DNA from: an uncultured Methanosarcinales archaeon
GTDB taxonomy: Archaea; Nanobdellota; Nanobdellia; Woesearchaeales; CAYSVS01
NCBI GenBank assembly: GCA_964589485.1
Contig: CAZPRK010000001.1
Span: 48,369-112,368, forward strand
Reading direction: 5' to 3'
Length of the DNA stretch: 64,000 bases
The stretch's first letter is position 1; each line of letters opens with the position of its first letter. A program made the position numbers and the translations under genes. Below, piece by piece: positions 1 through 41,267 of the stretch. The notes under the pieces were generated by a model that made no database searches, had not been told where the DNA came from, and saw only the letters and a list, made by a program, of their open reading frames with translations.

Positions 1-3000
1 TATCTAAGTCAGTAAATATTTTACTATAGAATGAATCACTAAAAGATAAACTATCTCCATCTATTCTTAATTTACTAATTTTATATCCTGGATCAGGTTG
101 AATAATTAAATCATAACTTAATCCTTCAACACCTTCATAGTAATTCCCAACTAAATTAGTATCTCCTATGATAAAAACTTTCCCACCTGTTCCGCTATTA
201 ACTTCAAATCCAGGTTTAGTACGTTTAAAAGTTGCAGAAATTTTCTTATTAGATTTAATATTATTAAAAGTATGTTTATAATTATTACCAATAGCAGTTG
301 GAAGTTTAACATCATCAGCTTTAACTTCACTTATTTCATAACCAACATTTGATTTTACATCAACAGATAAACTTGATTTTTCTTTTACTGAAGTTGAAGC
401 AGGAGTAATTGTTCCTCCTTTCCCTGCTGAAATTTCAACTGAAAAAGTTTCTAAATTTTCATGAACACATAAAGTTTTAGCTTTTTTATTAGTTCTTGAA
501 CCAATAAAAAGTTTTTTATCAGTTGTCAAATTATATTTAGATGAAAACTCTTTTTTAGAATAAGTAGAAAAATATTCATCTTTTAACCAAACTTCATCTA
601 AATCAGATATTTTGAACAACTCATTATTAGTATATTCTATGGTTTTTATTTTTTTAGCTTCATCCAAAGTAGGTAATCTCCAATCAGTTAATTCTCCAAT
701 ATTTAAATCATTACAATACGTTTCAAAATTTCTTACACACATATCAGTTCTTCCATTCACGTTTTTAAAATCACTACATTCTTTTTCTTTGTCTTGAGTT
801 GACCATTTTAAATTATTTTCAAAATCATTTAAAACATTCTGAGTATTTCCCATAGTATAACTATTTTGATTATTTCCTAAACTTAAATCATTTCCATCTC
901 TTACACAAACACTTATTGCATTTCCACCTGATTTTTTACTACTTGATATATCAACATTTACAGGGTAACGTTTATTATTTCTAAAATTTTTTTGTAACCC
1001 CTTAGTCCAAATTCTATCTTGTCCATTAATTCCAAATAAAGAATTATCTTTTACATATAAATCAAATATTTCTCTTACTTCCCCATCATTAGGGTTACGC
1101 CAATCAGTAAATCCACCTAAAGTTGAATCTCCGCAATAGTTTCGTTTAGTACAACCATAAAAATTTGAAGTAGAAGTTCCACATTTATTTTCTTCTCTTT
1201 TTGTAGTAAACATATTATTAGTATGTTCATTTACAACAATACTACCTTTATTATTTAATTTTACTTTTTGTAAATATAATTCAGTTGGAGTTATTGCTCC
1301 CTCTCTTACACATACTGTTTGTCCATATTCTCTAGAGAATCTATCATTAGTTACCCAATAATTTAAATTCCTCTTTAAATCAAATTTATAAGGATATTTG
1401 TAAGTTTTCCCACTCGTTGTTTTACTTTTAACTCCAGATGTCCAAACGTAGTCTCTATTTCTACGACTAAACTTTATATCTAATAAAGAATTATCTGTAT
1501 TTTCTATACCAATCAAAGTTTTAGCTTGATCTATCGTAGGAATTTTCCAATCTGTAAATCCGCCTAATTTCAAATAATAACAATAATTTACAAACCTTCT
1601 ATAACATCCAAATCCACCATATTTATATTTAAAATCGCATGTTTTTTCTTCTTTTGCTACAGTCCAAGTTAAATCATGTTTCTTATCTACTAAAACTCCA
1701 TCTTCTTTAGTCAATTTACTTAACCTTTCTCTCCTTGCTTTCTCTTCAGGAGTTAATCCACAATGTACAACTGCACCTAAGTTAGGGTATTGTGTAAGGG
1801 CATTACTTTTTGTCAATAAATCAGTAGTTCCTAATCTAAAAGGTGGATTATGAGAACTAGAATAACCATCAAAAGCAGTATATGCTTTAAAAACATCATT
1901 TCTACAAACATTTTGATTTAATTCATCAACATTCATTAAACTTCTTAATGGTACAAATTGCCATCCATCATTTAAATTTTTAATTTCCAATTTCCCACTA
2001 TCAACCACATATGCACAATTATTTGAAGTTTTAACAACAAATCCTTGCCCAGATTTTAACGAATTAAGAGTTTTCTTTTCATTATTTTCATATGTATAAA
2101 TAGAAATTGTACCACAATTTACAAATTTATTACTTACTTCAAAATTTTCACTTGTAGTTAATAAATGATACTTATCTTGTTTCAAATGTATTACATCCTG
2201 ATTTGATTTACATTTATAGTTTTGAGATTCATGTTTAACTATACTACCAACACTATCACAAGGTTTACCTGTTAACTCTTCACCCAATTTACAAAAAATA
2301 TTCAAACCATTACATGTATTTTGAGTACTAGCAGTAGTTACATCCCAAACATTTCTCCCAATATTTTCTCCAGGAACATAATCACTAACAACATTTACAT
2401 TATAAGATGCTGAAGCTTCTGCATCATCATCATCAGTAACAGTTAAAGTAACTTTATACGTCTTAGGTATTAAGTATTTATGTCTAAAGAAAGGTTCGCT
2501 ACGAATTCGATTATCTCCAAAATCCCATTTATATGATTTTATTTTCCCATCAACGTCATATGAAGAACTACCGTCATTAAATACATAAGTTCCTAATTTA
2601 ACAGTTATATCTCCTCCAACAATAGGAACAGGTTTTTTATTCAAAGGAGGTAAAATTCTTACTTTACTAGTCTTTATAGTTTTAGCTCTTTTATCATCTG
2701 TTACTTTTAAGGATACTTCAACTTCCTCAGGTAAGTTAAATGAATAATCTTCAACTTTAAACTGGTCTTCACCAGAATATTTAATTGATTGAACATCCCA
2801 ATCATAATTTTTAATAATACCATCTGGATCATTTGAATTACTTCCATCAATGTCAGTAAATTCTTCTGCATGAATTTCGTCTTCAAAAGTTATTTCTGCA
2901 ACTGGAGGTCTATTTATTATATTTAAAGTAGGCAAACGTTTAGTTTCACTTAATAATCCATCTTCATCTCTTACAGTAAGTTTAGGATAATAGTAATTAG

Positions 3001-6000
3001 CAGTAGGATATGAACGTTTAATTTTTGGATTTTCAGTTTCAACCAAAGGTCCATTACCAAAATTCCAAATATATGTTAAACTATCTCCATTTGGATCAAA
3101 AGATTCAGTAGCGTCAAATTCTATTTCTTCATTTGTTAAAGTGCTTACAGGTTTAACAATAACTTTTGCCTCAGGTGGTTCATTAAATATTTTTACATCA
3201 AATGGTTCATTAGATGTATCATATTTATCACGTACAGATAAAATAGCATGATAATCTTCATTTTTATATTCTGAATAAGAATGTTTAGCTACAGGGTCGC
3301 TTGAGAAATCTTTAATAGTATCATCTCCAAAATCCCATCTATATTCTAAGTCACTTTTATCTCCATCAGGGTCATAAGAACCAGAAGCATCAAAAGTAAT
3401 GTCAACATTTTTCTTATTAGTATTTACAAACTCTTTAAGTACTGCTACAGGTTTAATATTTTTCAAATCCAAAGATTTAGAATAAAAAGAAGTTGTATAC
3501 CTGTCATCTAATGTCAATTTAATTATATAATCTCCTTCAACACTAAAAGTCTTTTTCATAATATTAGTTGTAGAAGATTGTTTTACATCATTTATTTTCC
3601 ATTCATAAGTAATACTATCTCCATCAGAATCATAAGAACTAGAAGCATCAAAAATAATTTCATTATTTAATTTTTGTTCGCCATTAATTTCAAAATTAAC
3701 TGTAGGTTCTCTATTATTTATTCTTACAGTTTCAGTAAACGGTATTTCTGCATAATCATCAGCCACTGTTAAAGTTACTAAATAATCTTTGTTAAATTCA
3801 GGGAAAATATATGTATATTGTGAATCTTCAGAATAAGAAGTTTCTACATTACTTCCTATTTTCCATTTATAGTTTAAAGTATCTCCATCGCCATCAGAAG
3901 AACTAGAGGCATCAAAAGTAAGTTTATTCTTTTGATTAATATCAGGTGAATAAGTAAATTTAGGTATTGGGTTTTCATTTGTAAAAGATAAAGTTTGAGT
4001 TGTAGTTGAAGTAACATAACCATCATATACTGTTAATTTAACAGGATAACTACCAAATTCAGTAAAAGTATATTTATATTCTGAATTCTCAGAATAAGAA
4101 GTTTCTGCATTATTTCCAATTTTCCATTTATATTTTAAAGTATCCCCATCACTATCAGAAGAACTAGAAGCATCAAAAGTAATTTCCTGATTAAGTTTTT
4201 TATTACTTCTATCATGATTAAAGGAAGCAACAGGTTCTGTATTAGCTACATTTATTGTAAATGTTTTTGTTACTTCATCCCAATCATCTGAAACAGTTAA
4301 AACAACATTTTTTGATCCAGTGGTACTGAAACTATAACTTTTAATTGAATTACCTGGTTCATTATTCCAAGAGTAATATAAAGTATGACCATCAGAATCT
4401 GAAGACCTAGAAGCATCAAAAGTAATTTCTTCATCAGGCCTAACTGTAGTTGGAATATTATTAGTTTCTATAATTGGTGCAGTATTAGTAACAGTAACAA
4501 CAAAATTATCAGTATGCTCTCCACCTCTATCATCGGTTACAGTTAATGAAGCAGAATATTCACCTAAATCCAAATATGTATATGATACTTTTTTACCTTG
4601 CATATTTGGTTTATCTCCTTCTAACTCAGTATCGAACACCCACTTATATGTTTTAATTTCTCCATCTGAATCAGTTGAACTTCCGCCATCAAATTCAAAT
4701 GGTTTTCCAACAATTATATTTTTATCTCCGCCAGTATTTGCAACAGGCATAACATTAGGACGTAAAATTACTTGAACATTAAGTGTTTTAGAATTACTTC
4801 CTTCTCTATCATCAGTAACAGTTAATGTTACTGGGTACGTTCCAACTTCATTAAAAGTAAATGTAGGTTTTGATGTAGTTAAAATAACATCCCCAGGGAA
4901 ATTCCAATTATAAGCAACTATATTTCCATCATCATTATCGTAAGAACTTGTTCCATCAAATTCTATTGGGTTATTAATAAAAACTACTTTATCTCCAGTA
5001 ACTACAATTCCTTCACTAATAATATCACTTTGACTTACTAAGTCGCTTGATTTAATTGAAAATACAGCAGTAGGTAAAACATTAGGTTTTCTATCAACAG
5101 TAACTTTAATTATATCTGTCGAAGATAATCCTTCTTTATCAGTTACAGTTAATTCAATTTCTTTAACTCCCAATGTATTAAAAATATACTCAGGGTTAAC
5201 TCCTTCCATAATTTGTTCACCATTAAGTTTCCAAGTATAACTTAACTCATCATCTTCATCTGGATCTGTTGATGCTCCACCATTAAATTCAGCTTTATTT
5301 CCTAGATATACATTAAAATCTAAACCTGCTATTGCAGTTGGTGCCCTATTAGGATGGTTTACTATAACTTCATCTCCAAAACTAGACACTGCTCCTTTAC
5401 TATCAATTACATTCAAAAATACAGAATATATTCCAGCGTTATCATAAGCATGCACATTATTAACATCATTAGACTCAACATTATCTCCAAAGTTCCATGC
5501 ATGGATTAATTGATCACCATCAGTGTCTGTTGAAGTTGATGTAAATGTAACATCTTGTCCAATTAAAACTTCTCTTGGTTCAATTGTAAATTCTGATTTA
5601 GGAAATGCATTTATGCCTAACGATCTTTTTGATGGAACAAATTGTAAAGTACGTGTTCCCGTACCAACATCTGCAATTTCATCAAAAATTTCTTTAACAT
5701 CTGCATCATAATCTACTAACAATTTAATATGTTCCCATGCACCAGTGCTTGAATCTCTTGAATTATCTCCTTGATATTGATTATCCTCTGTTTTACACAA
5801 TACAGAATAAGATAACTCAGGAGAAATAGTTGGACAATATAATAAACATCTTGCATTATATTCATTTACATAACCCAAACAATCTTGTTTTTCATTTAAC
5901 CCAGGTTGAACAGAATGAAAAATAATTCTTTGATTTCCAATAACATCTTTTTCTAAAATAGGAGAAATTGTTAATTTAGTTAACTTATTCCTATCTTCAT

Positions 6001-9000
6001 CTTCAAAAACTAAAGTAGATTCAATTCTATATTGATCAGTATGTCCAATAATTTCAATAAACCCTATAAAGTTAGGATTTGAACCAGAAAGAAATATTTC
6101 ATTATTCCCGGCAAGTGAATCCCTCTCGCTTGCAATATTTGCTTCAACTGCTTCGTCTTCTAATTCATTACATAAATCCTCATTGCCTGAAGTAATGGCA
6201 TCAAATAAAACACAATCATTAGAACTAATTAATTTATTATCAGCTGAATCTATATGCTCTTGTGTACAAAATGAATCATCATTAATATATCCTGTACATT
6301 TATCTTTATAATCATCTAAAGTTAAATCTTTACATTGATCAACTTTATTATTTCTAATTGCTCTTAACAATAAACATTGATTTTGTTCTCCTTCTCCATC
6401 TAATGCCAAACAATCTTCTTTTTCTCCTAAATACATAGAAACGCATTCTTTAAATGGTTGATCTAATTCTTTTGGACAATATGCCTGAACATTAGCTTGT
6501 AACAATTCAGTAAAATCAATATTAGTATTTAGATTTTTACCAACGCCATTAAAAAGCTTAGCATAAGTAGAATCATATTCAAAATCAGTAAAATCATGTT
6601 GACATGTAACTTCTTTATTTGCAGTAACTTGAACATTTGTTGATAAAGTAGATAATTTAAATTCTCCAGGACTCACACTATATTCTAAAGACTCACCAAG
6701 ATTACATATTCCATCATTATCATCATCTTGTCCATCATTTGAAACATCTTTTTTACCTGCTACGCTACAATCGTCACAAGTATCTAAGTCAAAATCTCCG
6801 CAAACAAATTTATTTAATGGATCTATATCGTTTTCATCATCCACACCATCATTATCATCGTCATTATCAGGATAAATAGGATTAAAATAATCTAGAGGTT
6901 CATCACATAATCCATCTCCATCAGTATCCGGATGATATTCATGTTCAGAAGAAACTTTTCCATCTGTTATTGAAAATCCAATTCCTTTTCCACAATCATC
7001 ACAACCATCGTTATCAAAATCACCACAAATTGTATAATCATCGTCATTTTCATCAAAATAAGTATCATATTCACAATCAGTAATATTAGTTCCTCGCTTT
7101 CCTAATCCATCTCCATCTACATTTACACAACTTTTTCCGCTAGAATCACAGTTTCCATCTCCATCAAAATCAACTCCATCTTGATCAGGATCAAATCTTC
7201 CTAAAAAAGAACAATCATCACAACTATCTTCATCAGAATCTCCACAGAAATAAATATCTTTACTATAATCTACACCATCTTTATTTTTATCATTAATATC
7301 TAATACACCATCATTATCATCATCTTTATCAGTATTAGTAGCTGAAGGATAATCTTCAGGATCATCACATAACCCATCCCTATCAGTATCAGGCCAAGCT
7401 TCACTTCCACCATCTAATTCATTTGCCACTAAATTATTTTTATTTACAACTCTTATTACTCCAGCTCCACAATCATCACAACCATCATTATCTATATCAC
7501 TACACACTAAAGGATTTGTATCATCTTTATCTAAATCTTCATCTACTCCATCATTATCTCCATCATCATCACATACGTCACCTTTTAAAGTTACTCCAGG
7601 AACTCCATCTTCAGGTTCAAAGTCTTCATCAGAATTAGTTTGATCAAAATTCTTAGTACGCGGACAATTATCTGGACCTGCATTACATTTACATCCACCA
7701 TCTTTAATTAATATTTCTTGTTTACTTAAATCAGGACATTCTTTCAAATATCCATCATTTTCACCATCACAAATCCCATCTCTATCAGAGTCAGGCGTAC
7801 AAACATTTTCATCATTATTATCTCCAAAAATACATATTCTAGATGTAGTTTTTTTATGTTCCCCTAAATCTGTGATAGTTAATAAAGTTACATCTACATA
7901 TCCATCTTGATCACCATACACATTACTTGCAGTTAAAGAAAACTTTCTTCCTTTTTGTTCTCCCTTAACTTTTTCCTTTGTATCAAAATCCCAATAATAA
8001 CTTTGAATATTAGGATCTTCTTCAGCTTCAAAATAAATTTCAGCATCTTTAGCAAAAGAAACGCCATCAATTGGTGAAGTTATTACAGCTTTGGGTTCTT
8101 CTCCTGATTCCTCTATAGAATTTAATCTTAATTTAGCAGTCATATCTAACCAATTTTCAAAAGCATCCATATCATAACTAAAAACATTATAATTTAATTT
8201 TAAATTTTTTTCTTGCGGCAAACATAAAAAATCTACATTATCATTTTGTAAATCATATTTTAATACAGCATCACAAACATCAGCATTAAATCCAGAATAT
8301 TCAACTGTTAAAAATTCACCAATTTCATTTTCATTTTTTTGCACACTTTGTTCTAAAGCTGCAAAAACTTTATTTTTATCATTCCCAGCGGAATAAAATC
8401 TTACAAAATTTTTAATTTCGTTAACAAAACTAATATCTTCTTCACCAAAATTTATAGGTCTTACAAATAATCTAATAAAATTTACAGCAGCATCTGCTGG
8501 GCTTTTAAAAAAAGAAGTAAATAAAGTAGCTAAATTAGTTGATTGTAATTTAATTTCAGAATGTTGTGAAAAAATTAATGTTTTTAATTCTGCATCATAC
8601 CACACTTTTTTATTATTATTACATATTTTAAACCCATTATTTTTAACATTTGAACATAATTCTTCATCTAAATTTAGTTTAGTCAATATTTGACCATCTG
8701 TATCAATATCATCGTTTAAAGAAACCCCTGCAGCAACATCAAAAATTCCATTATCATTTTTATCATATTTTAAAACACAAACATTATTCATTGGTTTATC
8801 TACAGAATTATAATAATCTTCTAAACCAGGAACATCTTCTAAACTATTTACAACTTTATTTAATTCATCACAATGAATGGAGTATTTTGTTCCTGCTAAA
8901 TCAAGTAACTGGTTTGCTACAACTTTAGTTCTAGTAGTCCATTTTCCTTTTTCACAAAAATGATCTCCATCTAAATTATTTATTGATCCACTATTTTTAT

Positions 9001-11857
9001 CAGTATACCAACCATCATTTACACAAGAAATACCATTCCAACATTGAGTATCTTCTAAACAATATCCTCTTGGTTCATAATCTGTAGAATTATCCCACCT
9101 TTCTTTGTAATAAGTTGGTTTCCAAGATGCTTCAAAGTCAAGTGATCCCGTACTTCCAATTTCTTCTTTAACACAAACATATTGACTAAAATCGTTTGAT
9201 TCATTATTATACCCAAAATATTTACTAAACGCATCTGAATGTTTTCCATTAAAATTTAACGGAACACTTGAATAAGATTCATCATATTTAGCATAATCTA
9301 AAGGTTCAGAAATTCCTTCAACACAATAAACTCCATTCCAACAAGATTCTTTAGGACAACATCCTTTATCTCTTGATTGTGCTTCATCTAAATCAAAATA
9401 AATTTTATCTAAAGATGATAAATCATTCTTAGTATTTCTATCAATAGCTATAGCAGTTCCACTACTATCATCACTCCATTGACTTGCAGCATCAATTGTT
9501 TTATTTTTATCATCTCCATATGAACAAAAATAATCTCCTTTAACTGAACAAAAATCTTCTCCAGTATTTGGAGCACCACATTCTTTAAATTGTTTATCAG
9601 TATAGATTTTATTCAAAGGAAAATATTCAAATTTAATCAATTCATTAGGATTAGTAGTTTCAATTCCATTTTCAATTTCAATCGATTCTTTATATACAGA
9701 ACTAATTTTCATAGTACTTGCACCAGTAATTTGTATAGGTGTAACTTTTCCTTCAGAATCTAATGTAACATATTCTTCAGGAATAGAAACATAACAAGTT
9801 TCTCTTAAACAAATATCAGAAAATTCATCGCCATTTATTTTATACAACAAAGTATTATATCTAGCATTATCTAAAATAGGAACTCCATTTTGACATCCTG
9901 CATACGTTCCACCAGCAAAACTTTCTCCTTTTTCATTTCCACAACATGCATTTGTAATTTGATCTTCAGGTGAAGCAGTCCACATATACCCCGGAGTATC
10001 TAAACAAGCTGTTTTTCCAGAAACAGGATTATCCAAGTCATCAAACCATTTATAATCTGCACCACAATATGAATTTTTATTATTACTTAAAAACAATCTA
10101 TCTACAAAATATACATTTGCAAATTTTGAATTTTTCGATTTAAGTTTAACAGAATTTAATTCTTCTTCATTAAAATCATCATTTACTTTAAAAATGATCT
10201 CATTGATTGTGAATTCTTTATCGGTTGTTAATAATTCTTGTAAATTTCCATTTTCTCCAACAAAGTTAATTAAAGGAATTTTTATATGGTGCCAAGTCAT
10301 TGGTTGTTGGCCATTCTCTGAGAAACTTATTACATGATTAGGTACTTCAAAAGTTAATATTTCATTATCAATAGTTTTTCCTTTAAGTTCTAATCTTAAT
10401 TTAGAACTTCTTGCAAAAGCTAAATAAAATTCTAAATGTTCATACCCTCTCCAATCTTGAATATTAAAATTAACTTGAGAATCCGTGTGTCTTAATGGAG
10501 CAGTTCTATAATTATCTGAAAACATAAACACTCCTATTTGATTTCTTCCAGTTCCTGTTGGATCATAATTAAAATCAAATATTGTTGATAACAACTCACC
10601 TTGTCTTCTTGTTCTTTCACAAGGTAAATCTCCATTACAATCATTAACGCAATTAGCTAAATCATGCCCACAACATTCAATAAATTTACTCCCATTATTT
10701 TGTTTACTACACATAAACGAGTCTGATTTTTTATTTTCTACAGAATCTCCAACTTTAACATACTTATCAGCAACTATACCTAATTCTTGTAATTTTTTAT
10801 AATTTTGATCAATAGAAAGACCAAGTTCATCATTTTCAAAATTAATACTTTCTAAATCCAATAATTCAACTTGTTCAAATTCTTGTTTATATGGAATTAA
10901 AAAAATATCAGTACTTACTTTATTTCTATTTTCAATATTTAAAGTAGTTTCAGGTAAAAAAGTAAATCCTTCATTAACATATTCAATTACTGGTTCTTCA
11001 GTTGCAGAACTTGGTTGTTCAAAGTTAGATAATGTAGATGACACTGCAATTCCCGAAGGAACATTATCTCCATTAGATGTACATAAAAACCACTCTTCTC
11101 CATTAGAAATTATATCATTTTTAAAATTATTTACGCTATAAATATGATATTTGTTGTTAGTTGCACTACTCCATAACCATTCTTCACCATCATACCTTTC
11201 AGGATCTGGCAAAGAGTCAAAATTCCTATCAGGTAATAAACAAGCTTCATTTGAAGAAATTAAACCCAAATCACTTGCATTATCGTTCCCACAACAAATA
11301 TTATCTTTCCAAACATCAAGAATTGCACTTTCCATGTCACCAATGTCACCAGTTCCAGCTTTAGTTGGTTTTACTACTCCTGCACATTTTTGATTAAAAG
11401 TTTCAGCAGTATCTCCTGAAAATGAAGGTGGTAATGTACATTTATGTATTCCGAAATCATCCCCTTGAGCAGTACATCCAGGTAAATCAAACCTTGGATC
11501 ATGCCAAAAAGCATTATCCTTAGTACTAGGTAAAACCATTAAAGAATAATATTCATTTTCAGGAAAACATAAACGATGTAATAATCCTTTCCCATCACTT
11601 AAAAGCTTAGAATCATCAAAACAACTTACAGAACAAGTACTTTCTCCAACAGAAGCTGCACTCAAAATTCGACCAAATCTCGTTTCTTGAATCTCACTTC
11701 TTGGTTCAACATTTTCGGTACTTAATGTTCCGTTTCCATAAATCATACATTTTATACCATTTGCAGAAAAAGGATCTCCAAGTTCAGGTTCATCAGCAAA
11801 AACAAAGGTACTTAAAATAAGAAATAACACTAAATAAGTCCAAGATTTCCTCAACAC
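1..11857 (-). CDS. Giant secreted multidomain surface protein (adhesin-like), partial; more than 3,950 aa within the window, C-terminus lies beyond the window start. Not in the supplied ORF track.
   Basis: Reverse-strand translation opens with GTG at 11855..11857 and has an in-frame TAA just upstream at 11861..11863. Frame continuity was spot-checked at plus positions about 10294, 9049, 5497, 1573, 1138 and 718; all share the same frame with no stop encountered. The N-terminus MLRKSWTYLVLFLILSTFVFA-DEPEL is signal-peptide-like. Recognisable repeats: DxDxDGxxD Ca-binding, PKD (WNFGD, FDASSSSDSDGD..Y.W), DUF1566-like GGFTDWRxPT. Confidence 0.8.
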   Translation of the reverse strand, partial: MLRKSWTYLVLFLILSTFVFADEPELGDPFSANGIKCMIYGNGTLSTENVEPRSEIQETRFGRILSAASVGESTCSVSCFDDSKLLSDGKGLLHRLCFPENEYYSLMVLPSTKDNAFWHDPRFDLPGCTAQGDDFGIHKCTLPPSFSGDTAETFNQKCAGVVKPTKAGTGDIGDMESAILDVWKDNICCGNDNASDLGLISSNEACLLPDRNFDSLPDPERYDGEEWLWSSATNNKYHIYSVNNFKNDIISNGEEWFLCTSNGDNVPSGIAVSSTLSNFEQPSSATEEPVIEYVNEGFTFLPETTLNIENRNKVSTDIFLIPYKQEFEQVELLDLESINFENDELGLSIDQNYKKLQELGIVADKYVKVGDSVENKKSDSFMCSKQNNGSKFIECCGHDLANCVNDCNGDLPCERTRRQGELLSTIFDFNYDPTGTGRNQIGVFMFSDNYRTAPLRHTDSQVNFNIQDWRGYEHLEFYLAFARSSKLRLELKGKTIDNEILTFEVPNHVISFSENGQQPMTWHHIKIPLINFVGENGNLQELLTTDKEFTINEIIFKVNDDFNEEELNSVKLKSKNSKFANVYFVDRLFLSNNKNSYCGADYKWFDDLDNPVSGKTACLDTPGYMWTASPEDQITNACCGNEKGESFAGGTYAGCQNGVPILDNARYNTLLYKINGDEFSDICLRETCYVSIPEEYVTLDSEGKVTPIQITGASTMKISSVYKESIEIENGIETTNPNELIKFEYFPLNKIYTDKQFKECGAPNTGEDFCSVKGDYFCSYGDDKNKTIDAASQWSDDSSGTAIAIDRNTKNDLSSLDKIYFDLDEAQSRDKGCCPKESCWNGVYCVEGISEPLDYAKYDESYSSVPLNFNGKHSDAFSKYFGYNNESNDFSQYVCVKEEIGSTGSLDFEASWKPTYYKERWDNSTDYEPRGYCLEDTQCWNGISCVNDGWYTDKNSGSINNLDGDHFCEKGKWTTRTKVVANQLLDLAGTKYSIHCDELNKVVNSLEDVPGLEDYYNSVDKPMNNVCVLKYDKNDNGIFDVAAGVSLNDDIDTDGQILTKLNLDEELCSNVKNNGFKICNNNKKVWYDAELKTLIFSQHSEIKLQSTNLATLFTSFFKSPADAAVNFIRLFVRPINFGEEDISFVNEIKNFVRFYSAGNDKNKVFAALEQSVQKNENEIGEFLTVEYSGFNADVCDAVLKYDLQNDNVDFLCLPQEKNLKLNYNVFSYDMDAFENWLDMTAKLRLNSIEESGEEPKAVITSPIDGVSFAKDAEIYFEAEEDPNIQSYYWDFDTKEKVKGEQKGRKFSLTASNVYGDQDGYVDVTLLTITDLGEHKKTTSRICIFGDNNDENVCTPDSDRDGICDGENDGYLKECPDLSKQEILIKDGGCKCNAGPDNCPRTKNFDQTNSDEDFEPEDGVPGVTLKGDVCDDDGDNDGVDEDLDKDDTNPLVCSDIDNDGCDDCGAGVIRVVNKNNLVANELDGGSEAWPDTDRDGLCDDPEDYPSATNTDKDDDNDGVLDINDKNKDGVDYSKDIYFCGDSDEDSCDDCSFLGRFDPDQDGVDFDGDGNCDSSGKSCVNVDGDGLGKRGTNITDCEYDTYFDENDDDYTICGDFDNDGCDDCGKGIGFSITDGKVSSEHEYHPDTDGDGLCDEPLDYFNPIYPDNDDDNDGVDDENDIDPLNKFVCGDFDLDTCDDCSVAGKKDVSNDGQDDDNDGICNLGESLEYSVSPGEFKLSTLSTNVQVTANKEVTCQHDFTDFEYDSTYAKLFNGVGKNLNTNIDFTELLQANVQAYCPKELDQPFKECVSMYLGEKEDCLALDGEGEQNQCLLLRAIRNNKVDQCKDLTLDDYKDKCTGYINDDSFCTQEHIDSADNKLISSNDCVLFDAITSGNEDLCNELEDEAVEANIASERDSLAGNNEIFLSGSNPNFIGFIEIIGHTDQYRIESTLVFEDEDRNKLTKLTISPILEKDVIGNQRIIFHSVQPGLNEKQDCLGYVNEYNARCLLYCPTISPELSYSVLCKTEDNQYQGDNSRDSSTGAWEHIKLLVDYDADVKEIFDEIADVGTGTRTLQFVPSKRSLGINAFPKSEFTIEPREVLIGQDVTFTSTSTDTDGDQLIHAWNFGDNVESNDVNNVHAYDNAGIYSVFLNVIDSKGAVSSFGDEVIVNHPNRAPTAIAGLDFNVYLGNKAEFNGGASTDPDEDDELSYTWKLNGEQIMEGVNPEYIFNTLGVKEIELTVTDKEGLSSTDIIKVTVDRKPNVLPTAVFSIKSSDLVSQSDIISEGIVVTGDKVVFINNPIEFDGTSSYDNDDGNIVAYNWNFPGDVILTTSKPTFTFNEVGTYPVTLTVTDDREGSNSKTLNVQVILRPNVMPVANTGGDKNIIVGKPFEFDGGSSTDSDGEIKTYKWVFDTELEGDKPNMQGKKVSYTYLDLGEYSASLTVTDDRGGEHTDNFVVTVTNTAPIIETNNIPTTVRPDEEITFDASRSSDSDGHTLYYSWNNEPGNSIKSYSFSTTGSKNVVLTVSDDWDEVTKTFTINVANTEPVASFNHDRSNKKLNQEITFDASSSSDSDGDTLKYKWKIGNNAETSYSENSEYKYTFTEFGSYPVKLTVYDGYVTSTTTQTLSFTNENPIPKFTYSPDINQKNKLTFDASSSSDGDGDTLNYKWKIGSNVETSYSEDSQYTYIFPEFNKDYLVTLTVADDYAEIPFTETVRINNREPTVNFEINGEQKLNNEIIFDASSSYDSDGDSITYEWKINDVKQSSTTNIMKKTFSVEGDYIIKLTLDDRYTTSFYSKSLDLKNIKPVAVLKEFVNTNKKNVDITFDASGSYDPDGDKSDLEYRWDFGDDTIKDFSSDPVAKHSYSEYKNEDYHAILSVRDKYDTSNEPFDVKIFNEPPEAKVIVKPVSTLTNEEIEFDATESFDPNGDSLTYIWNFGNGPLVETENPKIKRSYPTANYYYPKLTVRDEDGLLSETKRLPTLNIINRPPVAEITFEDEIHAEEFTDIDGSNSNDPDGIIKNYDWDVQSIKYSGEDQFKVEDYSFNLPEEVEVSLKVTDDKRAKTIKTSKVRILPPLNKKPVPIVGGDITVKLGTYVFNDGSSSYDVDGKIKSYKWDFGDNRIRSEPFFRHKYLIPKTYKVTLTVTDDDDAEASASYNVNVVSDYVPGENIGRNVWDVTTASTQNTCNGLNIFCKLGEELTGKPCDSVGSIVKHESQNYKCKSNQDVIHLKQDKYHLLTTSENFEVSNKFVNCGTISIYTYENNEKKTLNSLKSGQGFVVKTSNNCAYVVDSGKLEIKNLNDGWQFVPLRSLMNVDELNQNVCRNDVFKAYTAFDGYSSSHNPPFRLGTTDLLTKSNALTQYPNLGAVVHCGLTPEEKARRERLSKLTKEDGVLVDKKHDLTWTVAKEEKTCDFKYKYGGFGCYRRFVNYCYYLKLGGFTDWKIPTIDQAKTLIGIENTDNSLLDIKFSRRNRDYVWTSGVKSKTTSGKTYKYPYKFDLKRNLNYWVTNDRFSREYGQTVCVREGAITPTELYLQKVKLNNKGSIVVNEHTNNMFTTKREENKCGTSTSNFYGCTKRNYCGDSTLGGFTDWRNPNDGEVREIFDLYVKDNSLFGINGQDRIWTKGLQKNFRNNKRYPVNVDISSSKKSGGNAISVCVRDGNDLSLGNNQNSYTMGNTQNVLNDFENNLKWSTQDKEKECSDFKNVNGRTDMCVRNFETYCNDLNIGELTDWRLPTLDEAKKIKTIEYTNNELFKISDLDEVWLKDEYFSTYSKKEFSSKYNLTTDKKLFIGSRTNKKAKTLCVHENLETFSVEISAGKGGTITPASTSVKEKSSLSVDVKSNVGYEISEVKADDVKLPTAIGNNYKHTFNNIKSNKKISATFKRTKPGFEVNSGTGGKVFIIGDTNLVGNYYEGVEGLSYDLIIQPDPGYKISKLRIDGDSLSFSDSFYSKIFTDLD
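640..1760 (-). repeat. Three DUF1566/Lcl-C-terminal-like modules inside the giant CDS
   Basis: Three copies of Cys-flanked modules with motif GGFTDW(K/R)xPT: LKLGGFTDWKIPTIDQ (about 1550), STLGGFTDWRNPNDGE (about 1100), IGELTDWRLPTLDE (about 690). Each was confirmed by direct reverse-complement translation. Confidence 0.55.
2400..5600 (-). repeat. Array of about 12 PKD domains inside the giant CDS
   Basis: Recurrent units of about 85-90 aa carrying FDAS.S.D.DGD.L.Y.W and WNFGD/WDFGD motifs. Several adjacent units are near-identical (TFDASSSSDSDGDTLKYKWKIG / TFDASSSSDGDGDTLNYKWKIG). Confidence 0.65.
6680..7810 (-). repeat. Thrombospondin-type-3-like Ca-binding Asp-rich repeats inside the giant CDS
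   Basis: Repeated DxDxDGxxDxxD with paired Cys, e.g. DTDRDGLCDDPED, DNDDDNDGVDDEND, CGDFDNDGCDDCG. The antisense strand gives a spurious His-rich ORF at 7423..7638. Confidence 0.55.
11795..11857 (-). other. Predicted N-terminal signal peptide of the giant protein
   Basis: Basic N-terminus (LRK), hydrophobic core YLVLFLILSTFVF, then A-DEPE. Confidence 0.5.
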
Positions 11858-13750: not shown

Positions 13751-14671
13751 TTAAATATTTAATAAATCTTGACCAATAAAATCTTCTTGAAATGTTCTTG
13801 GAACCGCCTTAGCAGTATTACAAGTTTGTTTTAATCCTTCATTTTCCACAACTGAACATACTGATTTTGTTTTCATAGTACTAGCAAAAAATGCATACGA
13901 TAAATCATCTACCCATAGTTTATACATAGATTCATAATTATCTCCACTAAAAACCCTACACATATAATGTGCACCACCATCAAGCTGATCACATAATTTT
14001 TCATTATTTAACAAATAATTAACCCATGCTGCATAAGATTTACAACCTACGTCTTTACAAACACTCAAATCTCTTGAAGTTATAGCTTTACATAAATCAG
14101 TTGTACATTCTGAACTTAACTCAAAACAAGTTTGTTTTATTTCAGAAGATTCTATATTATCACAATTTAAAGAAACTAAATTATTTACATCTTGTTTAAT
14201 TTCTTCAGCTTCTTCACATTCATGTTCATTATGGTGTAAATCATTAGTTTTTAAACAAGAAATATATTCATTACTTCCTTCTTTACACTCTTCACTATAC
14301 AAATCTTCATGAGAAACTTCTACAGGAGTAACTGAATCATGTAAATAAAAGTCATCACCTAAATATTCTCTAGAAACATAGTATTCTTTTATAATGTTTC
14401 CACAATTTTCTGATGTAGAAAAAACTTTTGCCCTTAAATCAAATTCAGAATTTAACAAAACAGTTCTTTGAATTTCTTCTTTAGAATCATGAAGAATTTT
14501 TAATCCTACTGCTGCATCAGTAGTCCCACTTTCACTAAGATATAATTCTACTGCCTTTTTCTCTTTAGCATCAGCATAATTTAATTCAATAGATGATGAA
14601 GGTAAGTAAATTCCAATAAAAACTATAATTAACAGTAACCCTAAAAGAATGTAAATATTTTTTTGTTTCAC
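13751..14671 (-). CDS. Membrane-anchored, Cys-rich (about 16 Cys) acidic extracellular protein
   Basis: N-terminal hydrophobic anchor IYILLGLLLIIVFIGIY followed by an acidic, Cys-rich domain. Confidence 0.5.
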   Translation of the reverse strand: MKQKNIYILLGLLLIIVFIGIYLPSSSIELNYADAKEKKAVELYLSESGTTDAAVGLKILHDSKEEIQRTVLLNSEFDLRAKVFSTSENCGNIIKEYYVSREYLGDDFYLHDSVTPVEVSHEDLYSEECKEGSNEYISCLKTNDLHHNEHECEEAEEIKQDVNNLVSLNCDNIESSEIKQTCFELSSECTTDLCKAITSRDLSVCKDVGCKSYAAWVNYLLNNEKLCDQLDGGAHYMCRVFSGDNYESMYKLWVDDLSYAFFASTMKTKSVCSVVENEGLKQTCNTAKAVPRTFQEDFIGQDLLNI

Positions 14672-14709
14672 TTAATAATTTAATACTTTAAAACTTATAA
14701 AAGTTTCGA

Positions 14710-15663
14710 TTAGATAAAAGAAAATAATATTATCAAAACCATAGAAAATCCAAAATAAGGAGCAAGAGGTAATTCTTGAGATATTTTTAACTTTTTTATG
14801 CCCCATTCTTTTATTTCTTTTATTTCGTTATAATCTAAACCTTCACTTCCTTCAACATATAAAAGTTCATATCCAGAAGCTTGTTCTTTATTATTAAAAA
14901 AAAATATTTTATTATTCTTTCTAGCAATAATATCATGAACCATCATTCCTGGCTTTAAATCAATACTATTAACTTCATAAAAATCAGAAGTTAATAAAGT
15001 TTTAAAATAATCAAACAATAAATAAAATATGAAAGGATAAATTACCCCTCTAAATAAATAAGCACTATAATCATTCACAATTATCAAATTTATTATCACT
15101 AAAATAAAAGTAAATTTACGATAAGATAAAAATTTTCTCAAAAAAGAATTTGTAAAAAAAATGAGAGATAAAAAAAGACTAAATGCTAAATACATATAAT
15201 TATTTAACTCAAAAAAATAATTAAACCCAAAAAATATTAAAAAAATAAGCTGAAAAAAACTAAAATAAAGTAACAATATGGGTAATGAAAAAGTATTTTT
15301 TAATTCAGATATTTTATTATTATAAATTAATTTAATAAGAACTAATAAAGACGGAATTATTAGCCCTATTAATATAACTAATAACATAGGAAAGTTATTA
15401 TTAACTAAAAAAGAAGGAATTCCTAATGCATAAACCATCAATAATTTTGAATCCCCTGCTGGAATTAACCCAGACATCCATAAAAGTATTGCAAAAACAA
15501 ATGTAAAAATAAAATTAAATAAATATTGTGGTGTATATTCTGCTAAAATTAAAAATAATATAGCAAAAATAACCAAATGAACATTTTTTACTTTATGTTC
15601 CTTAATATCAGTATAAGAAGTTAATATAATAAACAACAATAAAGTTAAAATATTTAATATCAT
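14710..15663 (-). CDS. A24-family aspartic prepilin/preflagellin peptidase-like polytopic membrane protein with C-terminal soluble extension
   Basis: Polytopic membrane protein. SYTDIKEHKVKN fits the first catalytic Asp motif (D...R/H..PN) and IPAGDSKLL fits the second (GxGDxKL) of PibD/FlaK/PilD peptidases. Confidence 0.55.
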   Translation of the reverse strand: MILNILTLLLFIILTSYTDIKEHKVKNVHLVIFAILFLILAEYTPQYLFNFIFTFVFAILLWMSGLIPAGDSKLLMVYALGIPSFLVNNNFPMLLVILIGLIIPSLLVLIKLIYNNKISELKNTFSLPILLLYFSFFQLIFLIFFGFNYFFELNNYMYLAFSLFLSLIFFTNSFLRKFLSYRKFTFILVIINLIIVNDYSAYLFRGVIYPFIFYLLFDYFKTLLTSDFYEVNSIDLKPGMMVHDIIARKNNKIFFFNNKEQASGYELLYVEGSEGLDYNEIKEIKEWGIKKLKISQELPLAPYFGFSMVLIILFSFI

Positions 15664-15697
15664 AAAAAAAAGAACTTACTTAATAATTTAAAGTTTA

Positions 15698-15928
15698 CTA
15701 ATAACTGCTATGATTTGCATGATTAACATGGTGACTATGAGATGTAGAAATAGAATTATCACCAGGAGTTACTGCTACACTATTTTGATGACTAGTAGTT
15801 CCAGCAGACGCTTCTTGCGAAAGTACAAAAACTAACCCAGTTGCTATGGCTGCATCTAATAATCCTTTCTTGGATACACTTGCTTTTTCACTTTTTAAAA
15901 AAGAACTTACTTTTCTTACTAATTTCAT
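15698..15928 (-). CDS. Small pilin-like protein with putative class III signal peptide and His/Ser-rich C-terminus (76 aa)
   Basis: Basic N-terminus ...SKKG followed by hydrophobic LLDAAIATGLVFVLS. C-terminus is TSHQNS..SHSHHVNHANHSSY. Lies immediately upstream of the A24 peptidase and diverges from a radical SAM/SPASM gene. Confidence 0.45.
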   Translation of the reverse strand: MKLVRKVSSFLKSEKASVSKKGLLDAAIATGLVFVLSQEASAGTTSHQNSVAVTPGDNSISTSHSHHVNHANHSSY

Positions 15929-16015
15929 TAATTAAAAATAACAAAATCTAATTTATAAATTTTTCTATTAGTTACAACACAAAACTTAATATATACAACT
16001 AAAAGCCTAAATTAG

Positions 16016-16981
16016 ATGAATAAACCTTTAGATTTAACTCTCGAAATCAACAATAAATGTAATTTAAAGTGTAAACATTGTCAAATTTGGAAAGAACGTC
16101 CATTTTATGAATTAAATATCAACGAAATTAAAGATACAATAACTAAACTAAAAAATAAATATTCAGAAATAACTAATATTTCATTAACAGGTGGAGAATG
16201 TTTCTTAAATAAAGATATTGAAAAAATCATAGTATTATTAGCTAAATTACAAACTAACAATATCATTAAAGAATTTGATTTAGTTTCGAATGGATTTTTT
16301 TATGATAAAATTAAAGACATTTTCATCAGAAATAAAGAATTAATAACCAAATCTAAATTTTCAATAGCATTTAGTGTTGACGGTTTAAAAGAAAATCATA
16401 ATAAACAAAGAGGAAATCCAAAAAGTTTTCAAGAATTAGAAAAAAGTATTGATTTTTTTATAACTAATTTCCCTAACATTAACACTTCGGTTAAATTTAC
16501 TGCAACTAACATAAATTATAAAGATACATATAATCTATTTCTTTGGTGTAAAAATAAAAACATTAATTTTGCACCAAAAATAGTAGAATTTGGAACTAAT
16601 AATTATTACCATAGAAATGGAACTTCTGAGTTAAATGAAAACACTCAAGAAATGATAGAATATATGAAAAAAGTTTTTCAAAATTTATTAACTGAACCAT
16701 TAGTAGAAAAAAAAGGGATTAAACTTCATTTAGATTACTTAAATACGAATAAATTTTGTAAAAATAGTTGTTATACTCCTTGGCAAAGTTTATTTATTGA
16801 TTCTAGAGGTAAAATTTTTCCTTGTATTTATTATGACCCTATTACTAACATCCATGAAAATAACTGGGAATTTAAAATTAACAATCAAGAACATAAACAA
16901 TTAATTGCAATGGGTCTTAAGAAAACATGTAAAGGATGTCTTGCATATCATGGGTTCTTAAAACCATATAATTTAAAATGA
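16016..16981 (+). CDS. Radical SAM enzyme with C-terminal SPASM-like Cys cluster
   Basis: CNLKCKHCQ (CxxxCxxC); C-terminal cysteines CKNSCYTPW...PCIYY...CKGC. Confidence 0.75.
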   Translation: MNKPLDLTLEINNKCNLKCKHCQIWKERPFYELNINEIKDTITKLKNKYSEITNISLTGGECFLNKDIEKIIVLLAKLQTNNIIKEFDLVSNGFFYDKIKDIFIRNKELITKSKFSIAFSVDGLKENHNKQRGNPKSFQELEKSIDFFITNFPNINTSVKFTATNINYKDTYNLFLWCKNKNINFAPKIVEFGTNNYYHRNGTSELNENTQEMIEYMKKVFQNLLTEPLVEKKGIKLHLDYLNTNKFCKNSCYTPWQSLFIDSRGKIFPCIYYDPITNIHENNWEFKINNQEHKQLIAMGLKKTCKGCLAYHGFLKPYNLK

Positions 16982-17652
16982 TAATTATACGAAATGACGA
17001 TGTTGGATTAGAAAATAAAACTTTTATTAAATTTAATAATTGGATTAATGAATTAAACATTCCATGTACTTACGCAATCATACCATATTATATCAATAAT
17101 GAATTAAAAAATAAAATAAGTAAAAATATAGAAATAGTTATGCATGGATATAAACACAAAAATTATAGTAACAATGAAATTAAATACGAATTTGGAGATT
17201 CAAGAAATTATGAACAACAATTACATGACTTAACTGAAGCAAATAACATTTTTGAACATCATTTTCCGAATCAAGAAAAAATATTCATTCCTCCTTGGCA
17301 TAAAATAAATCAAGATACAATTAAAGCGTTAAATAAACTAAATTATAATAAAATTAGTCTATCTTATTTAGAAAAAAAACAAAAAACTCCTTTTCAAATT
17401 AGTTGGATTCATATTATTTTTCATCCAAAATTAACTAAAAAGAAAGACCTTCCTGAATTAATAAAAAAAATTATAGCTTTATGTCAAAATCAATGGTATG
17501 TGGGGATTAATATGCATCATCATTTTATGACTAATAGGGAAGAAGAAGAAACGACTAAATTATTCTTAGAATTAATTAAACAAATTTCAATAAAATATAA
17601 CATAAAATTAGGAAAAGTTACTGATTCATACAATAATCACGAACAGAATTAA
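16978..17652 (+). CDS. CE4 (NodB)-like polysaccharide deacetylase family protein, divergent
   Basis: RNDDVG (motif 1, DD), HGYKH (motif 2, HxxxH), IPPW (motif-3-like). Confidence 0.4.
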   Translation: MIIIRNDDVGLENKTFIKFNNWINELNIPCTYAIIPYYINNELKNKISKNIEIVMHGYKHKNYSNNEIKYEFGDSRNYEQQLHDLTEANNIFEHHFPNQEKIFIPPWHKINQDTIKALNKLNYNKISLSYLEKKQKTPFQISWIHIIFHPKLTKKKDLPELIKKIIALCQNQWYVGINMHHHFMTNREEEETTKLFLELIKQISIKYNIKLGKVTDSYNNHEQN

Positions 17653-18703
17653 CAACTAAATTTAATTCTTCATCAGGTAAAAAAGGAGATAATGGAAGAT
17701 GCACACCTTTTTTTTCATATTGCAAAGCTACATCTAATCCTTGAACATCTTGCTTAAATAAATTTAATGAAGTTAAACATTTATAAGACGGATCTAAATC
17801 AATATCTTTTCCTCTTAAATAAGTTCTTAATTTTTCTCTTTCATCTAACTCAATAACATAATGCTGCCTGATAGACTCAGCATACGTGGGATCTTTTGTT
17901 ACTTTAACAACGTCACCTAATTCTTTTTCATAAAAATTTTGCATTTTTAATTTAGATTTTCTAAGTAAATCAAAAACTTTAATTTTTACATTAATATTTG
18001 CCAACTCCAATAAACTTAACCTTGCAGCTGCACGTCCAAAATCCAAAACTGATAAATTATCATTTTCAATATCTAGCATTCCCGGAACTTGTGATGCAAT
18101 TTCATCATCATCATAAACAATACATCCTCCAGTATATCCTGGAACATTTTTATGCATAGTAAAACTAAATGCAGCTACATCGCTAAATTGACCAGTTAAT
18201 TTACCATTGTAAGTACTTCCGTGACTTTGGCAACAATCTTCTACTATTTTCAATCCATGTTTATTTGCAATTTCTTGAATTGCATCCATGTCACAAACAT
18301 GTCCAAACATGTGAACTGGAAGAATTGCTTTTGTTTTAGAAGTAATTTTACTTTCAATTTTAGTATGATCTATAACATAATATTCATTTGCATCTATAAA
18401 TATTGGTTTAGCTCCCAATTCTAATATTGGTAAAGCTGTTGCATAATATGTTAATGCTGGAACAATTATTTCATCTCCAGGTTTAATCCCAATTAATGTT
18501 AATGCTAACTTTAAGGCAGTTGTACCTGAATCTACAAATTTACAATGTCTTCTTCCAATAAAGTTACTCATATTTTTTCCAACTTGAACTTCATATGCTT
18601 CATGATCATGTAAACTCATTAAATCTAATACTTTATCAAACTCAGAAATCAAATGTTTCTTAATTAATTTATTTATCCTTAAATCTGTCGTGTATAAAGT
18701 CAT
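17618..18703 (-). CDS. DegT/DnrJ/EryC1/StrS-family PLP-dependent sugar aminotransferase
   Basis: FSFTMHKNVPGYTGG (SF..K PLP-lysine region), DSGTTAL, and overall architecture. Confidence 0.8.
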   Translation of the reverse strand: MTLYTTDLRINKLIKKHLISEFDKVLDLMSLHDHEAYEVQVGKNMSNFIGRRHCKFVDSGTTALKLALTLIGIKPGDEIIVPALTYYATALPILELGAKPIFIDANEYYVIDHTKIESKITSKTKAILPVHMFGHVCDMDAIQEIANKHGLKIVEDCCQSHGSTYNGKLTGQFSDVAAFSFTMHKNVPGYTGGCIVYDDDEIASQVPGMLDIENDNLSVLDFGRAAARLSLLELANINVKIKVFDLLRKSKLKMQNFYEKELGDVVKVTKDPTYAESIRQHYVIELDEREKLRTYLRGKDIDLDPSYKCLTSLNLFKQDVQGLDVALQYEKKGVHLPLSPFLPDEELNLVVNSVRDYCMNQ

Positions 18704-19814: not shown

Positions 19815-19815
19815 T

Positions 19816-21201: not shown

Positions 21202-21400
21202 TTTCTCTCACCTTAGCCAAAACATAATTAGCAAATTCAAACGGTAAAATTGAATCATCTTTAAATTCTATAATAACAAAAGAATCTTCTTCAACTAAAC
21301 TTACTTCATATTCTTTTTTAAACTCAAGCATAGTTTCCAAAATATATTTTTTTGGATAAAATTCTAAAGAAAGTTTAATTTTGTGAGACATCTTTCTCAA
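21194..21400 (-). CDS. Small hypothetical protein, 68 aa
   Basis: ORF overlapping the start of the downstream radical SAM gene by 8 nt (translational-coupling arrangement). Confidence 0.3.
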   Translation of the reverse strand: MRKMSHKIKLSLEFYPKKYILETMLEFKKEYEVSLVEEDSFVIIEFKDDSILPFEFANYVLAKVRENE

Positions 21401-31382: not shown

Positions 31383-31395
31383 TTTCTAAATAAAG

Positions 31396-33116: not shown

Positions 33117-33210
33117 TTAAATGCCTAATTGATAAGTATTTTTAAAAGTAACCATTCCAAATCAACATAATTGAATAGATAAATTTGTATTTAGAAAACT
33201 ATTTAAACCT

Positions 33211-33240
33211 CCGCTTCTGATGGAAATTCTCGTAGGGGGT
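33211..33240 (+). promoter_or_regulatory. ORB-like element abutting the cdc6 start (also carries the GGGGG SD)
   Basis: CCGCTTCTGATGGAAATTCTCGTAGGGGGT resembles the euryarchaeal ORB pattern (TTCCAGTGGAAAT...GGGGG) recalled from memory. It lies 4 nt upstream of the cdc6 ATG. Confidence 0.35.
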
Positions 33241-33244
33241 AAAG

Positions 33245-41228: not shown

Positions 41229-41267
41229 TACAAATAATTTTAAATAAATTCATTTTTTAGTTTCTTA

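Follow-up and report, generated by a model that had tools for sequence, protein, structure and literature searches.

Three divergent Lcl_C (DUF1566) modules in a giant PKD-stalked protein of a Woesearchaeota-type archaeon: candidates for anionic-glycan binding

Introduction

The 64,000-nucleotide stretch of contig CAZPRK010000001.1 analysed here (the window) encodes on its minus strand the in-window part of a giant, predicted secreted protein (2..11857, 3,952 codons, start GTG at 11857) which carries three tandem modules of the family PF07603 (Lcl_C/DUF1566). On the evidence of sequence, the modules are genuine but divergent members of this family. The interpretation that we favour with moderate confidence is that they belong to a PKD-stalked fibrillar adhesin and bind anionic glycans in a multivalent, charge-assisted manner. 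Taken alone, an archaeal, divergent representative of an established domain family with an architecture of a known type is fairly ordinary. What goes beyond routine annotation is the uniformly cationic predicted ligand face of the modules and the purge of N-glycosylation sequons from the protein.

A life attached to other cells is generally assumed for DPANN archaea such as Woesearchaeota, and the attachment molecules of the uncultured lineages are essentially unknown. The giant protein is a concrete, expressible candidate for such a molecule, and its predicted cationic faces point to anionic glycans as ligands. With it, the known range of the domain, of which the Legionella collagen-like adhesin Lcl is the only member characterised by experiment, comes to include Archaea. 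Charge-assisted, low-specificity "fuzzy" binding of glycans may be general in this family, which has thousands of uncharacterised members.

Identification of the three modules

The three motif peptides LKLGGFTDWKIPT, TLGGFTDWRNPN, and IGELTDWRLPT are found in one minus-strand frame. Their TDW[KR]xP[TN] cores are located at 1535-1555 (TDWKIPT, module 1), 1088-1108 (module 2), and 668-688 (module 3). The six-frame translation of the 64 kb contains no further instance of the core pattern, and it appeared in none of 200 nucleotide shuffles of the window and in none of 2000 residue shuffles of the protein. A plus-strand reading of positions 1-2100 was rejected because all three frames are closed there, which places the giant gene on the minus strand, as are all the features of the protein given below.

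The module limits were taken from the local hidden Markov model (HMM) matches and correspond to codons 3382-3520, 3531-3655, and 3666-3801. Module 1 (M1, 1301..1717) has 139 residues, the motif GGFTDWKIPT, an isoelectric point (pI) of 9.4, and a net charge of +10. Module 2 (M2, 896..1270) has 125 residues, the motif GGFTDWRNPN, a pI of 9.1, and a net charge of +5, while module 3 (M3, 458..865) has 136 residues, the motif GELTDWRLPT, and a pI of 5.9. A preliminary description of this DNA, made from the letters alone, had proposed three Cys-flanked modules of roughly 120 residues between 640 and 1760. The modules are indeed 125-139 residues long with four equivalent cysteines each, and the proposed span covers all three motifs, but it cuts M3, whose true extent reaches down to 458.

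The modules are related to each other, as the same description had assumed. Pairwise BLASTP alignments show 27-36 % identity with E-values of 3e-15 (M1-M2), 4.5e-12 (M2-M3), and 4.6e-18 (M1-M3), and the Smith-Waterman scores lie at z = 17-23 over residue shuffles, with none of 500 shuffles reaching the observed score. The alignment of M1-M3 has 19 invariant columns, including the four cysteines.

Assignment to the Lcl_C family

Against the whole protein, PF07603 scores 68.7 bits (gathering score 34.9) with an E-value of 6.9e-19 over three stretches, so that the DUF1566 assignment first made from the motifs stands. Scored alone, M1 reaches 38.9 bits (E 1.2e-9), M2 20.1 bits (E 8e-4, a partial match), and M3 31.2 bits (E 2.9e-7). 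A family alignment of 70 sequences headed by M1 (A3) has the invariant columns C47, D57, W58, P61, W93, and C137, all of which are also found in M1-M3. The core motifs of the family (YC; G-[FY]-x-DWRLP-x-x-x-EL; W-[ST]-[ST]; V-R-C-V-R) are present in the modules, except that LPN/T is replaced by NPN in M2 and CVR by CVH in M3.

Two disulfides are predicted in each module. The first would be formed by the family-wide YC...CVR cysteine pair, which is invariant across the family alignment, yet Lcl itself is without it. The second would be formed by C28 and C39 (M1 numbering). This pair lies in an insertion which is common to M1-M3 and to P0007, a 419-residue orthologue fragment from TARA Oceans (mesopelagic station 039), and absent from the bacterial sequences, so that the second disulfide would be specific to the archaeal lineage.

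A search of 1.84 billion cluster representatives with a profile of the three modules recovered 2,293 proteins at E<=1e-3. A word-indexed search with a slightly broader profile recovered 2,116 proteins at E<=1e-5, and PF07603 was found in 120/120 among the matches listed. The only solved relative by sequence is the C-terminal domain (CTD) of Legionella Lcl (8Q4E/8QK8). The profile built from A3 matches 8q4e_A with an E-value of 9.2e-6 over its C-terminal 76 positions.

Fold and structure models

The Lcl CTD adopts a C-type-lectin-like fold. The AlphaFold2 models of M1 (mean predicted local distance difference test score 73.9, predicted template modelling score 0.71) and M2 (72.7 and 0.71) both begin with three short strands, after which come two helices. 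The M1 model continues with long C-terminal strands, while the C-terminal half of the M2 model is almost without regular structure. The order of elements in the M1 model fits the C-type-lectin-like fold class.

The comparison of the models with known structures, which the preliminary description had suggested as a check, gave no significant fold match. Foldseek searches of the PDB (M1 and M2 models) and of BFVD (M1 only) returned only noise, the top match being a phage collagen-repeat protein (E 0.049), with a C-type lectin at E 3.2. When the homologues were aligned to the M1-M3 triplet with MAFFT, nearly all of them were placed on M2, leaving a coverage of 0-1 sequences on M3.

Cationic variable segments and proposed glycan binding

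The in-window protein is strongly acidic, with a pI of 4.45 and a net charge of -294 (-7.4 per 100 residues), and M1 and M2 stand out from it with the basic pI values given above. The positive charge is concentrated in the segment between the conserved W and the cysteine of CVR. This cationic variable segment has 45 residues with 9 K+R in M1 (1310..1444), 35 residues with 7 K+R in M2 (905..1009), and 41 residues with 10 K+R in M3 (467..589), all on the minus strand, and its net charge is +6 in each of the three. The same segment in 67 single-module homologues has a mean net charge of +0.46 (standard deviation 2.1, maximum +4) and 3.2 K+R (maximum 6), and each archaeal module therefore exceeds all 67 homologues compared. 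In P0007, the equivalent of the M1 segment is KYKRRTKRVKFRNWR, and its cationic character is kept though the sequence differs.

In Lcl, Lys369, Lys380, Lys385, and Lys391 are required for glycosaminoglycan (GAG) binding; their mutation reduces binding, which has been attributed to general electrostatic attraction, while the sampling of the glycan by Ser, Thr, and Asn residues has been described as "fuzzy" (PMC11162425). When the published residue numbers are placed on the HMMER alignment of A3 with 8q4e, these four lysines map into the archaeal W..C segment. The anchors used for the mapping are D336-W-R338, T-R342-F343-E344, I-E368-K369, S-K380, I-K385, and S-K391. The archaeal segments are rich in K/R and in S/T/N/Y residues. 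Independent support for the C-terminal part of the domain as the ligand face comes from diversity-generating retroelements (DGRs), since the hypervariable, surface-exposed region of their "category d" targets overlaps the DUF1566 motif (PMC5758913).

Based on these observations, each module would present its variable C-terminal segment, from the conserved W(T/S) to CVR, as a ligand-binding face. The ligands would be polyanionic glycans, for instance acidic or sulfated polysaccharides or acidic glycans of cell envelopes, which the modules would bind by charge and low-specificity hydrogen bonding, as Lcl binds GAGs. The three copies per chain would supply the multivalency that Lcl gains by trimer formation, and the two predicted disulfides would stabilise each module outside the cell. 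The target could be the surface of a host or partner cell, in which case the protein would serve in attachment, or the envelope of the archaeon itself, in which case it would anchor the fibre non-covalently. Lectin-like extracellular proteins have been proposed for host recognition in cultivated DPANN archaea (bioRxiv 10.1101/2023.10.27.564410).

Several observations weigh against the binding of anionic glycans by a fibrillar adhesin. Scored alone, only M1 passes the gathering score of PF07603, with M2 and M3 below it though significant. The archaeal-only profile (M1-M3) fails to detect 8q4e, so that the modules are connected to the solved structure transitively, by way of the wider family. 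A regular-expression search of M1-M3 found none of the canonical Ca2+/carbohydrate motifs [EQ]P[ND] (EPN/QPD) and WND. The charge enrichment is a circumstantial pointer to binding, and lysine is favoured in a genome of 26 % GC; on the other hand, the acidity of the rest of the protein speaks against composition bias alone. The position of the modules is internal, near the C-terminus, and with a C-terminal anchor they would be close to the cell and not at the distal tip. Finally, the last 259 residues and the downstream genes are located beyond the window. The lectin-like binding proposed in the preliminary description is retained as a putative function: the two models gave no significant fold match, the canonical C-type-lectin motifs are absent from the modules, and the best indirect support for binding, the cationic variable face, had been missed.

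The DGR literature also raises the question of whether a DGR rewrites one or more of the modules, or a C-terminal lectin domain beyond the window, as a hypervariable region, which is the case for Legionella LdtA and for many proteins of DPANN archaea and of the candidate phyla radiation. DUF1566 is a recognised target class accounting for 14 % of the surveyed DGRs, and DGRs are diverse in DPANN archaea (PMC5758913). The usual place of the cassette is the 3' end of the target gene or the DNA immediately beyond it, which here is outside the window. Against such a system, no copy of a module resembling a template repeat was found elsewhere in the 64 kb (the best match covers 34 nt with 85 % identity, E 0.003), and there is no reverse transcriptase among the scanned open reading frames of the window or the genes called upstream of the giant gene. 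P0004, a near-identical M3 fragment from another assembly, is identical over the part of the variable segment that it covers; besides its ends, one residue differs, and this residue is outside the segment. The window is also 100 % identical to three other assemblies over the common region. We consider a DGR target very improbable.

Architecture of the giant protein

A single open frame runs on the minus strand from 11860 down to 2 (3,953 codons) and exits the left window edge. On an identical 306-kb ENA scaffold, the gene has been called from the GTG at window position 11857, upstream of which GAGGT is found, and the product has 4,211 residues. The 3' end of the gene, beyond the window edge, thus comprises ~778 nt (~259 residues and the stop). 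The triplet of modules occupies residues ~3381-3800 of 4,211, within the last 20 % of the chain.

The protein begins with a predicted Sec signal peptide (11795..11857), (M)LRKSWTYLVLFLILSTFVFA with DEPE after the cut, in which a basic n-region, a hydrophobic core, and a VFA cleavage-like site were read by eye. It is followed by an N-terminal region of ~1,250 residues with 42 Cys (8108-11794) for which Pfam recognises no family at E<=0.1. With a C-terminal anchor, the fibre would have this region at its distal tip, and the true adhesive or enzymatic end of the protein could then be located here.

The Asp/Cys-rich repeats of the DxDxDG/CxDxD type at 6671..7843 (391 residues, 98 Asp, 26 Cys, net charge -92) look like thrombospondin-3-type Ca2+-binding repeats. 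This is a resemblance only, as Pfam gave no match at E<=0.1. Codons 1731-2090 (5594-6670) have no recognisable Pfam family at the same threshold. The stalk is formed by an array of PKD domains at 2366..5593, with boundaries set by eye, in which PF18911 (PKD_4) matches 12 stretches (E 2e-143) and PF00801 (PKD) matches 11. The array has no cysteine.

Between the PKD array and M1 there is a Cys-rich region of 216 residues with 8 Cys (1718..2365). It is collinear with P0007 at ~37 % identity, and it has no match in Pfam nor, by sequence, in the PDB. The possibility that it is a degenerate fourth module was rejected, as hhalign gives a probability of 0.1 % against the 70-sequence family alignment. 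It is probably a lineage-specific domain travelling with the Lcl_C modules. The preliminary description had placed the modules after a PKD array; the array of 12 stretches is indeed upstream, with this Cys-rich region in between.

M3 is followed by a divergent InlB B-repeat (Flg_new_2, PF18998) at 218..442, which scores 32.7 bits against a cutoff of 23.6 (E 7.5e-8). A probable second copy at 2..217 is cut by the window edge and has no Pfam stretch of its own. The similarity between the two copies is weak (Smith-Waterman z = 2.9, a score reached by 11/500 shuffles), and both carry the pattern E-x-x-x-G-x-GG ... GY-x-IS. With these repeats and ~259 further residues after M3, and contrary to the preliminary description, the modules are neither the C-terminal end of the protein nor a terminal "head". 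No collagen family was found among the Pfam matches on the whole in-window protein, which thus shows no collagen-like G-x-y repeat by this search. The NCBIfam search of the giant protein returned only a similarity to a myxosortase-dependent M36 peptidase, which is due to the PKD domains and scores far under the cutoff.

As predicted from these assignments, the overall layout of signal, PKD stalk, Lcl_C modules, and B-repeats is that of a fibrillar adhesin. The features that point to this class are the signal-peptide-like N-terminus read by eye, the 12 PKD stretches, and Lcl_C as the candidate adhesive domain, the last being a putative role. Fibrillar adhesins follow the logic of a stalk joined to an adhesive domain, with the anchor normally at one end and the adhesive region away from it (PMC9210967).

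This last point bears on a serious rival, in which the cationic triplet and the B-repeats bind the acidic envelope polymers of the archaeon itself, and the N-terminal ~1,250 residues beyond the stalk form the adhesive tip. The modules come after the stalk, in the last part of the chain and ahead of the InlB-type B-repeats, and the N-terminal region without a recognised domain could be a novel adhesive region. Lcl itself is peripheral and surface-associated (PMC11162425). Self-anchoring would involve the same biochemistry as adhesion to a partner, with the target alone being different. The fibre would be kept on the cell in a way analogous to Listeria InlB, whose C-terminal GW modules bind lipoteichoic acid. 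However, the C-terminal region that would contain the anchor is outside the window. Self-anchoring is regarded as possible, with a probability well short of that given to the adhesin.

It is also conceivable that the DUF1566 units have no ligand of their own and act as rigid spacers or chain-assembly units. The Lcl CTD is a trimerisation unit, and the generic role of DUF1566 has been called unclear, with the suggestion that it could "promote trimer formation" (PMC11162425). In bacterial relatives, chains of 3,400-5,900 residues carry as many as 14-16 module stretches along their length, which looks stalk-like. However, the archaeal protein already has a dedicated stalk of 12 PKD units, and a variable-face charge of +6 conserved in M1-M3 and a cationic orthologue are not expected of a spacer. 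In our own mapping, the trimer-interface residue R342 of Lcl is not conserved, its equivalents being I, D, and L. A purely structural role is considered unlikely.

Depletion of N-glycosylation sequons

The giant protein contains 8 N-x-S/T sequons (x not P) in 3,953 residues, compared with 49.5 +/- 6.4 in shuffled sequences (n=500 shuffles, minimum 33), which is a ~6-fold depletion. There are no sequons between residues 1593 and 3776, and the depletion is strongest in the regions encoded by 2366-5593 and 458-2365; the PKD array alone has 0 sequons where 14.9 are expected. Control motifs in the same protein are not depleted, with 56 occurrences of [ST]-x-N, 46 of N-x-x-[ST], and 51 of D-x-[ST]. 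The other 41 open reading frames of the window, when pooled, have sequons at expectation (113 observed, 122 expected). P0007 likewise has 0 sequons, against 5-8 occurrences of the control motifs.

This pattern suggests selection against N-glycosylation of the exported giant protein. The sequon purge can be tested, and it is an independent sign both of contact between the protein and the glycosylation machinery of the archaeon and of selection that keeps the protein free of glycans.

A more specific proposal joins the sequon purge to the charge and copy number of the modules. According to this proposal, the triplet would be a single-chain pseudo-trimer which mimics the Lcl-CTD homotrimer and forms a cationic platform for sulfated or acidic host glycans, purged of sequons to avoid self-masking or self-engagement, in a marine woesearchaeotal episymbiont. 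If true, it would be the first host-attachment lectin of the C-type-lectin-like domain type in DPANN archaea, with covalent triplication replacing oligomerisation. In this complete form, the proposal is doubtful and is held at low confidence.

Relatives

All the named homologues recovered are bacterial and come from Bacteroidota, Nitrospinota, Campylobacterota, and Myxococcaceae, in agreement with the earlier view that the domain is mainly known from bacteria. The identity of the archaeal modules to any bacterial sequence is at most ~35 %. The best-scoring representatives are giant multi-module proteins. P0003 has 5,569 residues and 16 Lcl_C stretches, and adjoins type II secretion system (T2SS) genes and Lgt. 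P0009 joins TSP_3 (PF02412), Lcl_C, and CLIPPER, with TSP_3 beside Lcl_C; P0014 joins Lcl_C and Flg_new_2, with FecR nearby; and P0006 and P0010 carry Myxococcaceae names. The archaeal giant and the bacterial surface giants thus have a common domain toolkit.

On its contig (L085, 82-26710), the P0003 gene is ~4.4 kb downstream of the genes for the T2SS secretin, GspE, and GspF, with three small genes between. Since Lcl itself is a T2SS substrate (PMC11162425), it may be common among bacteria for giant DUF1566 proteins to be exported by the T2SS.

P0007 is collinear with the Cys-rich pre-module region, M1, and M2 at 37 % identity, and is the sole sequence that shares the pre-module region. Its TDW motif has decayed to NQW. 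The giant protein itself is absent from the results of both protein searches. Peptide-pattern scans of genome and metagenome contig collections for the rest of the giant gene found no relative, and an exact 50-nt DNA pattern of the gene had no match in metagenome contigs.

Host organism and the rest of the window

The window encodes both subunits of the archaeal DNA polymerase PolD (DP1 and DP2), Orc1/Cdc6, TBP, and an MCM helicase with an archaeal winged-helix domain. The PolD large subunit is 55-72 % identical to sequences from metagenome-assembled genomes of Woesearchaeota/Nanoarchaeota, and 35-41 % identical to those of Asgard archaea and methanogens. The GC content is uniform, at 27-31 % in the giant gene and 23-30 % elsewhere. 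Together, the archaeal neighbours, the PolD identity, and the uniform GC indicate that the host is a DPANN archaeon and that the gene stems neither from contamination nor from a recent acquisition. By these sequence criteria, the host is an archaeon of the Woesearchaeota type, and the archaeal origin given in the preliminary description is upheld.

The bacterial origin of all the named homologues could be taken to mean that the motif arose by chance or that bacterial DNA was mis-assembled into an archaeal contig. This explanation is refuted. The motif was never seen in the shuffles, and the HMM and pairwise scores are significant. A neighbouring protein of 355 residues is found residue for residue in contigs from ENA, JGI, and Logan, which are 100 % identical to the window over 13-21 kb across the junction between the giant gene and its neighbour, the ENA scaffold being 306 kb long. 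The gene also has the GC content of its surroundings, and its modules are remote from every bacterial sequence.

Just upstream of the giant gene and in the same direction are the genes at 13751-21207 (L001 1957-9964). They encode a Cys-rich protein of 306 residues that has a hydrophobic segment at its N-terminal end, a prepilin-peptidase-like membrane protein (Peptidase_A24), an AMP-binding enzyme, a DegT aminotransferase, and a polysaccharide deacetylase. They also include an HxsD-family gene between two radical-SAM genes, one of which is of the SPASM type. These genes may form a surface-modification or peptide-maturation cluster.

The MCM helicase gene (27987-31385, minus strand) is interrupted in the P-loop domain by an intein that carries a LAGLIDADG homing-endonuclease domain. 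The cumulative GC skew has its minimum at ~32-34 kb, at a switch in gene orientation (33116-33236) and beside the Orc1/Cdc6 gene (33236-34450), which is consistent with a replication origin there. Many DPANN archaea are without purine synthesis, and the large purine-biosynthesis set at 41244-61155 (purD, purB, guaA, purH, FGAM synthase, and a purM-like gene) is therefore unexpected. It includes, at 54188-56452, a 755-residue fusion of PurQ-type amidotransferase, SAICAR synthetase, and AIR carboxylase domains. Scans of the window for tRNAs and Rfam families were empty.

Comparison with known systems

The closest characterised system is the Lcl CTD (8Q4E/8QK8). The archaeal modules share with it the Pfam family and the core D-W-R-x-P ... 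E-L ... W-S/T ... V-R motifs, and they have a basic cluster in the segment that holds the GAG-binding lysines of Lcl. Both are without the canonical Ca2+/sugar motifs, and in both, three binding units act together, in the archaeal case as predicted. On the other hand, Lcl is a homotrimer on a collagen-like stalk, while the archaeal copies are in tandem in one chain with a PKD stalk. The Lcl CTD has no disulfides (PMC11162425), whereas the archaeal modules have four conserved cysteines each. Lcl is bacterial and is exported by the T2SS (PMC11162425), while the giant protein is archaeal with a predicted Sec-type signal. The sequence similarity between the two is remote, as reflected in the archaeal-only profile missing 8q4e.

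The bacterial DUF1566 giants are also very large extracellular proteins which combine several Lcl_C modules with Asp-rich Ca-type repeats, Ig-like/PKD-type repeats, and Flg_new_2. They differ in that their contexts are bacterial where these can be judged, that they match mainly via the 30-residue core motif, and that none of them has the Cys-rich pre-module region or the extra cysteine pair.

The DUF1566/DUF823/Fib_succ_major class of DGR targets, including Legionella LdtA, likewise has an exposed ligand-binding scaffold with C-terminal variability (PMC5758913). In contrast to the DGR variable proteins, the archaeal modules are internal and not C-terminal, and the searches of the window yielded neither a template repeat nor a reverse transcriptase.

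Like the fibrillar adhesins (PMC9210967), the giant protein combines a predicted signal peptide with a long stalk of repeats and a domain that is putatively adhesive, although the surveys of that class covered bacteria. Among DPANN archaea, the lectin-like proteins of Nanobdella aerobiophila and Nanohalobium constans are likewise of an extracellular lectin type proposed for host recognition. However, they are beta-sandwich proteins of the concanavalin-A/legume-lectin type (bioRxiv 10.1101/2023.10.27.564410) and not DUF1566 proteins.

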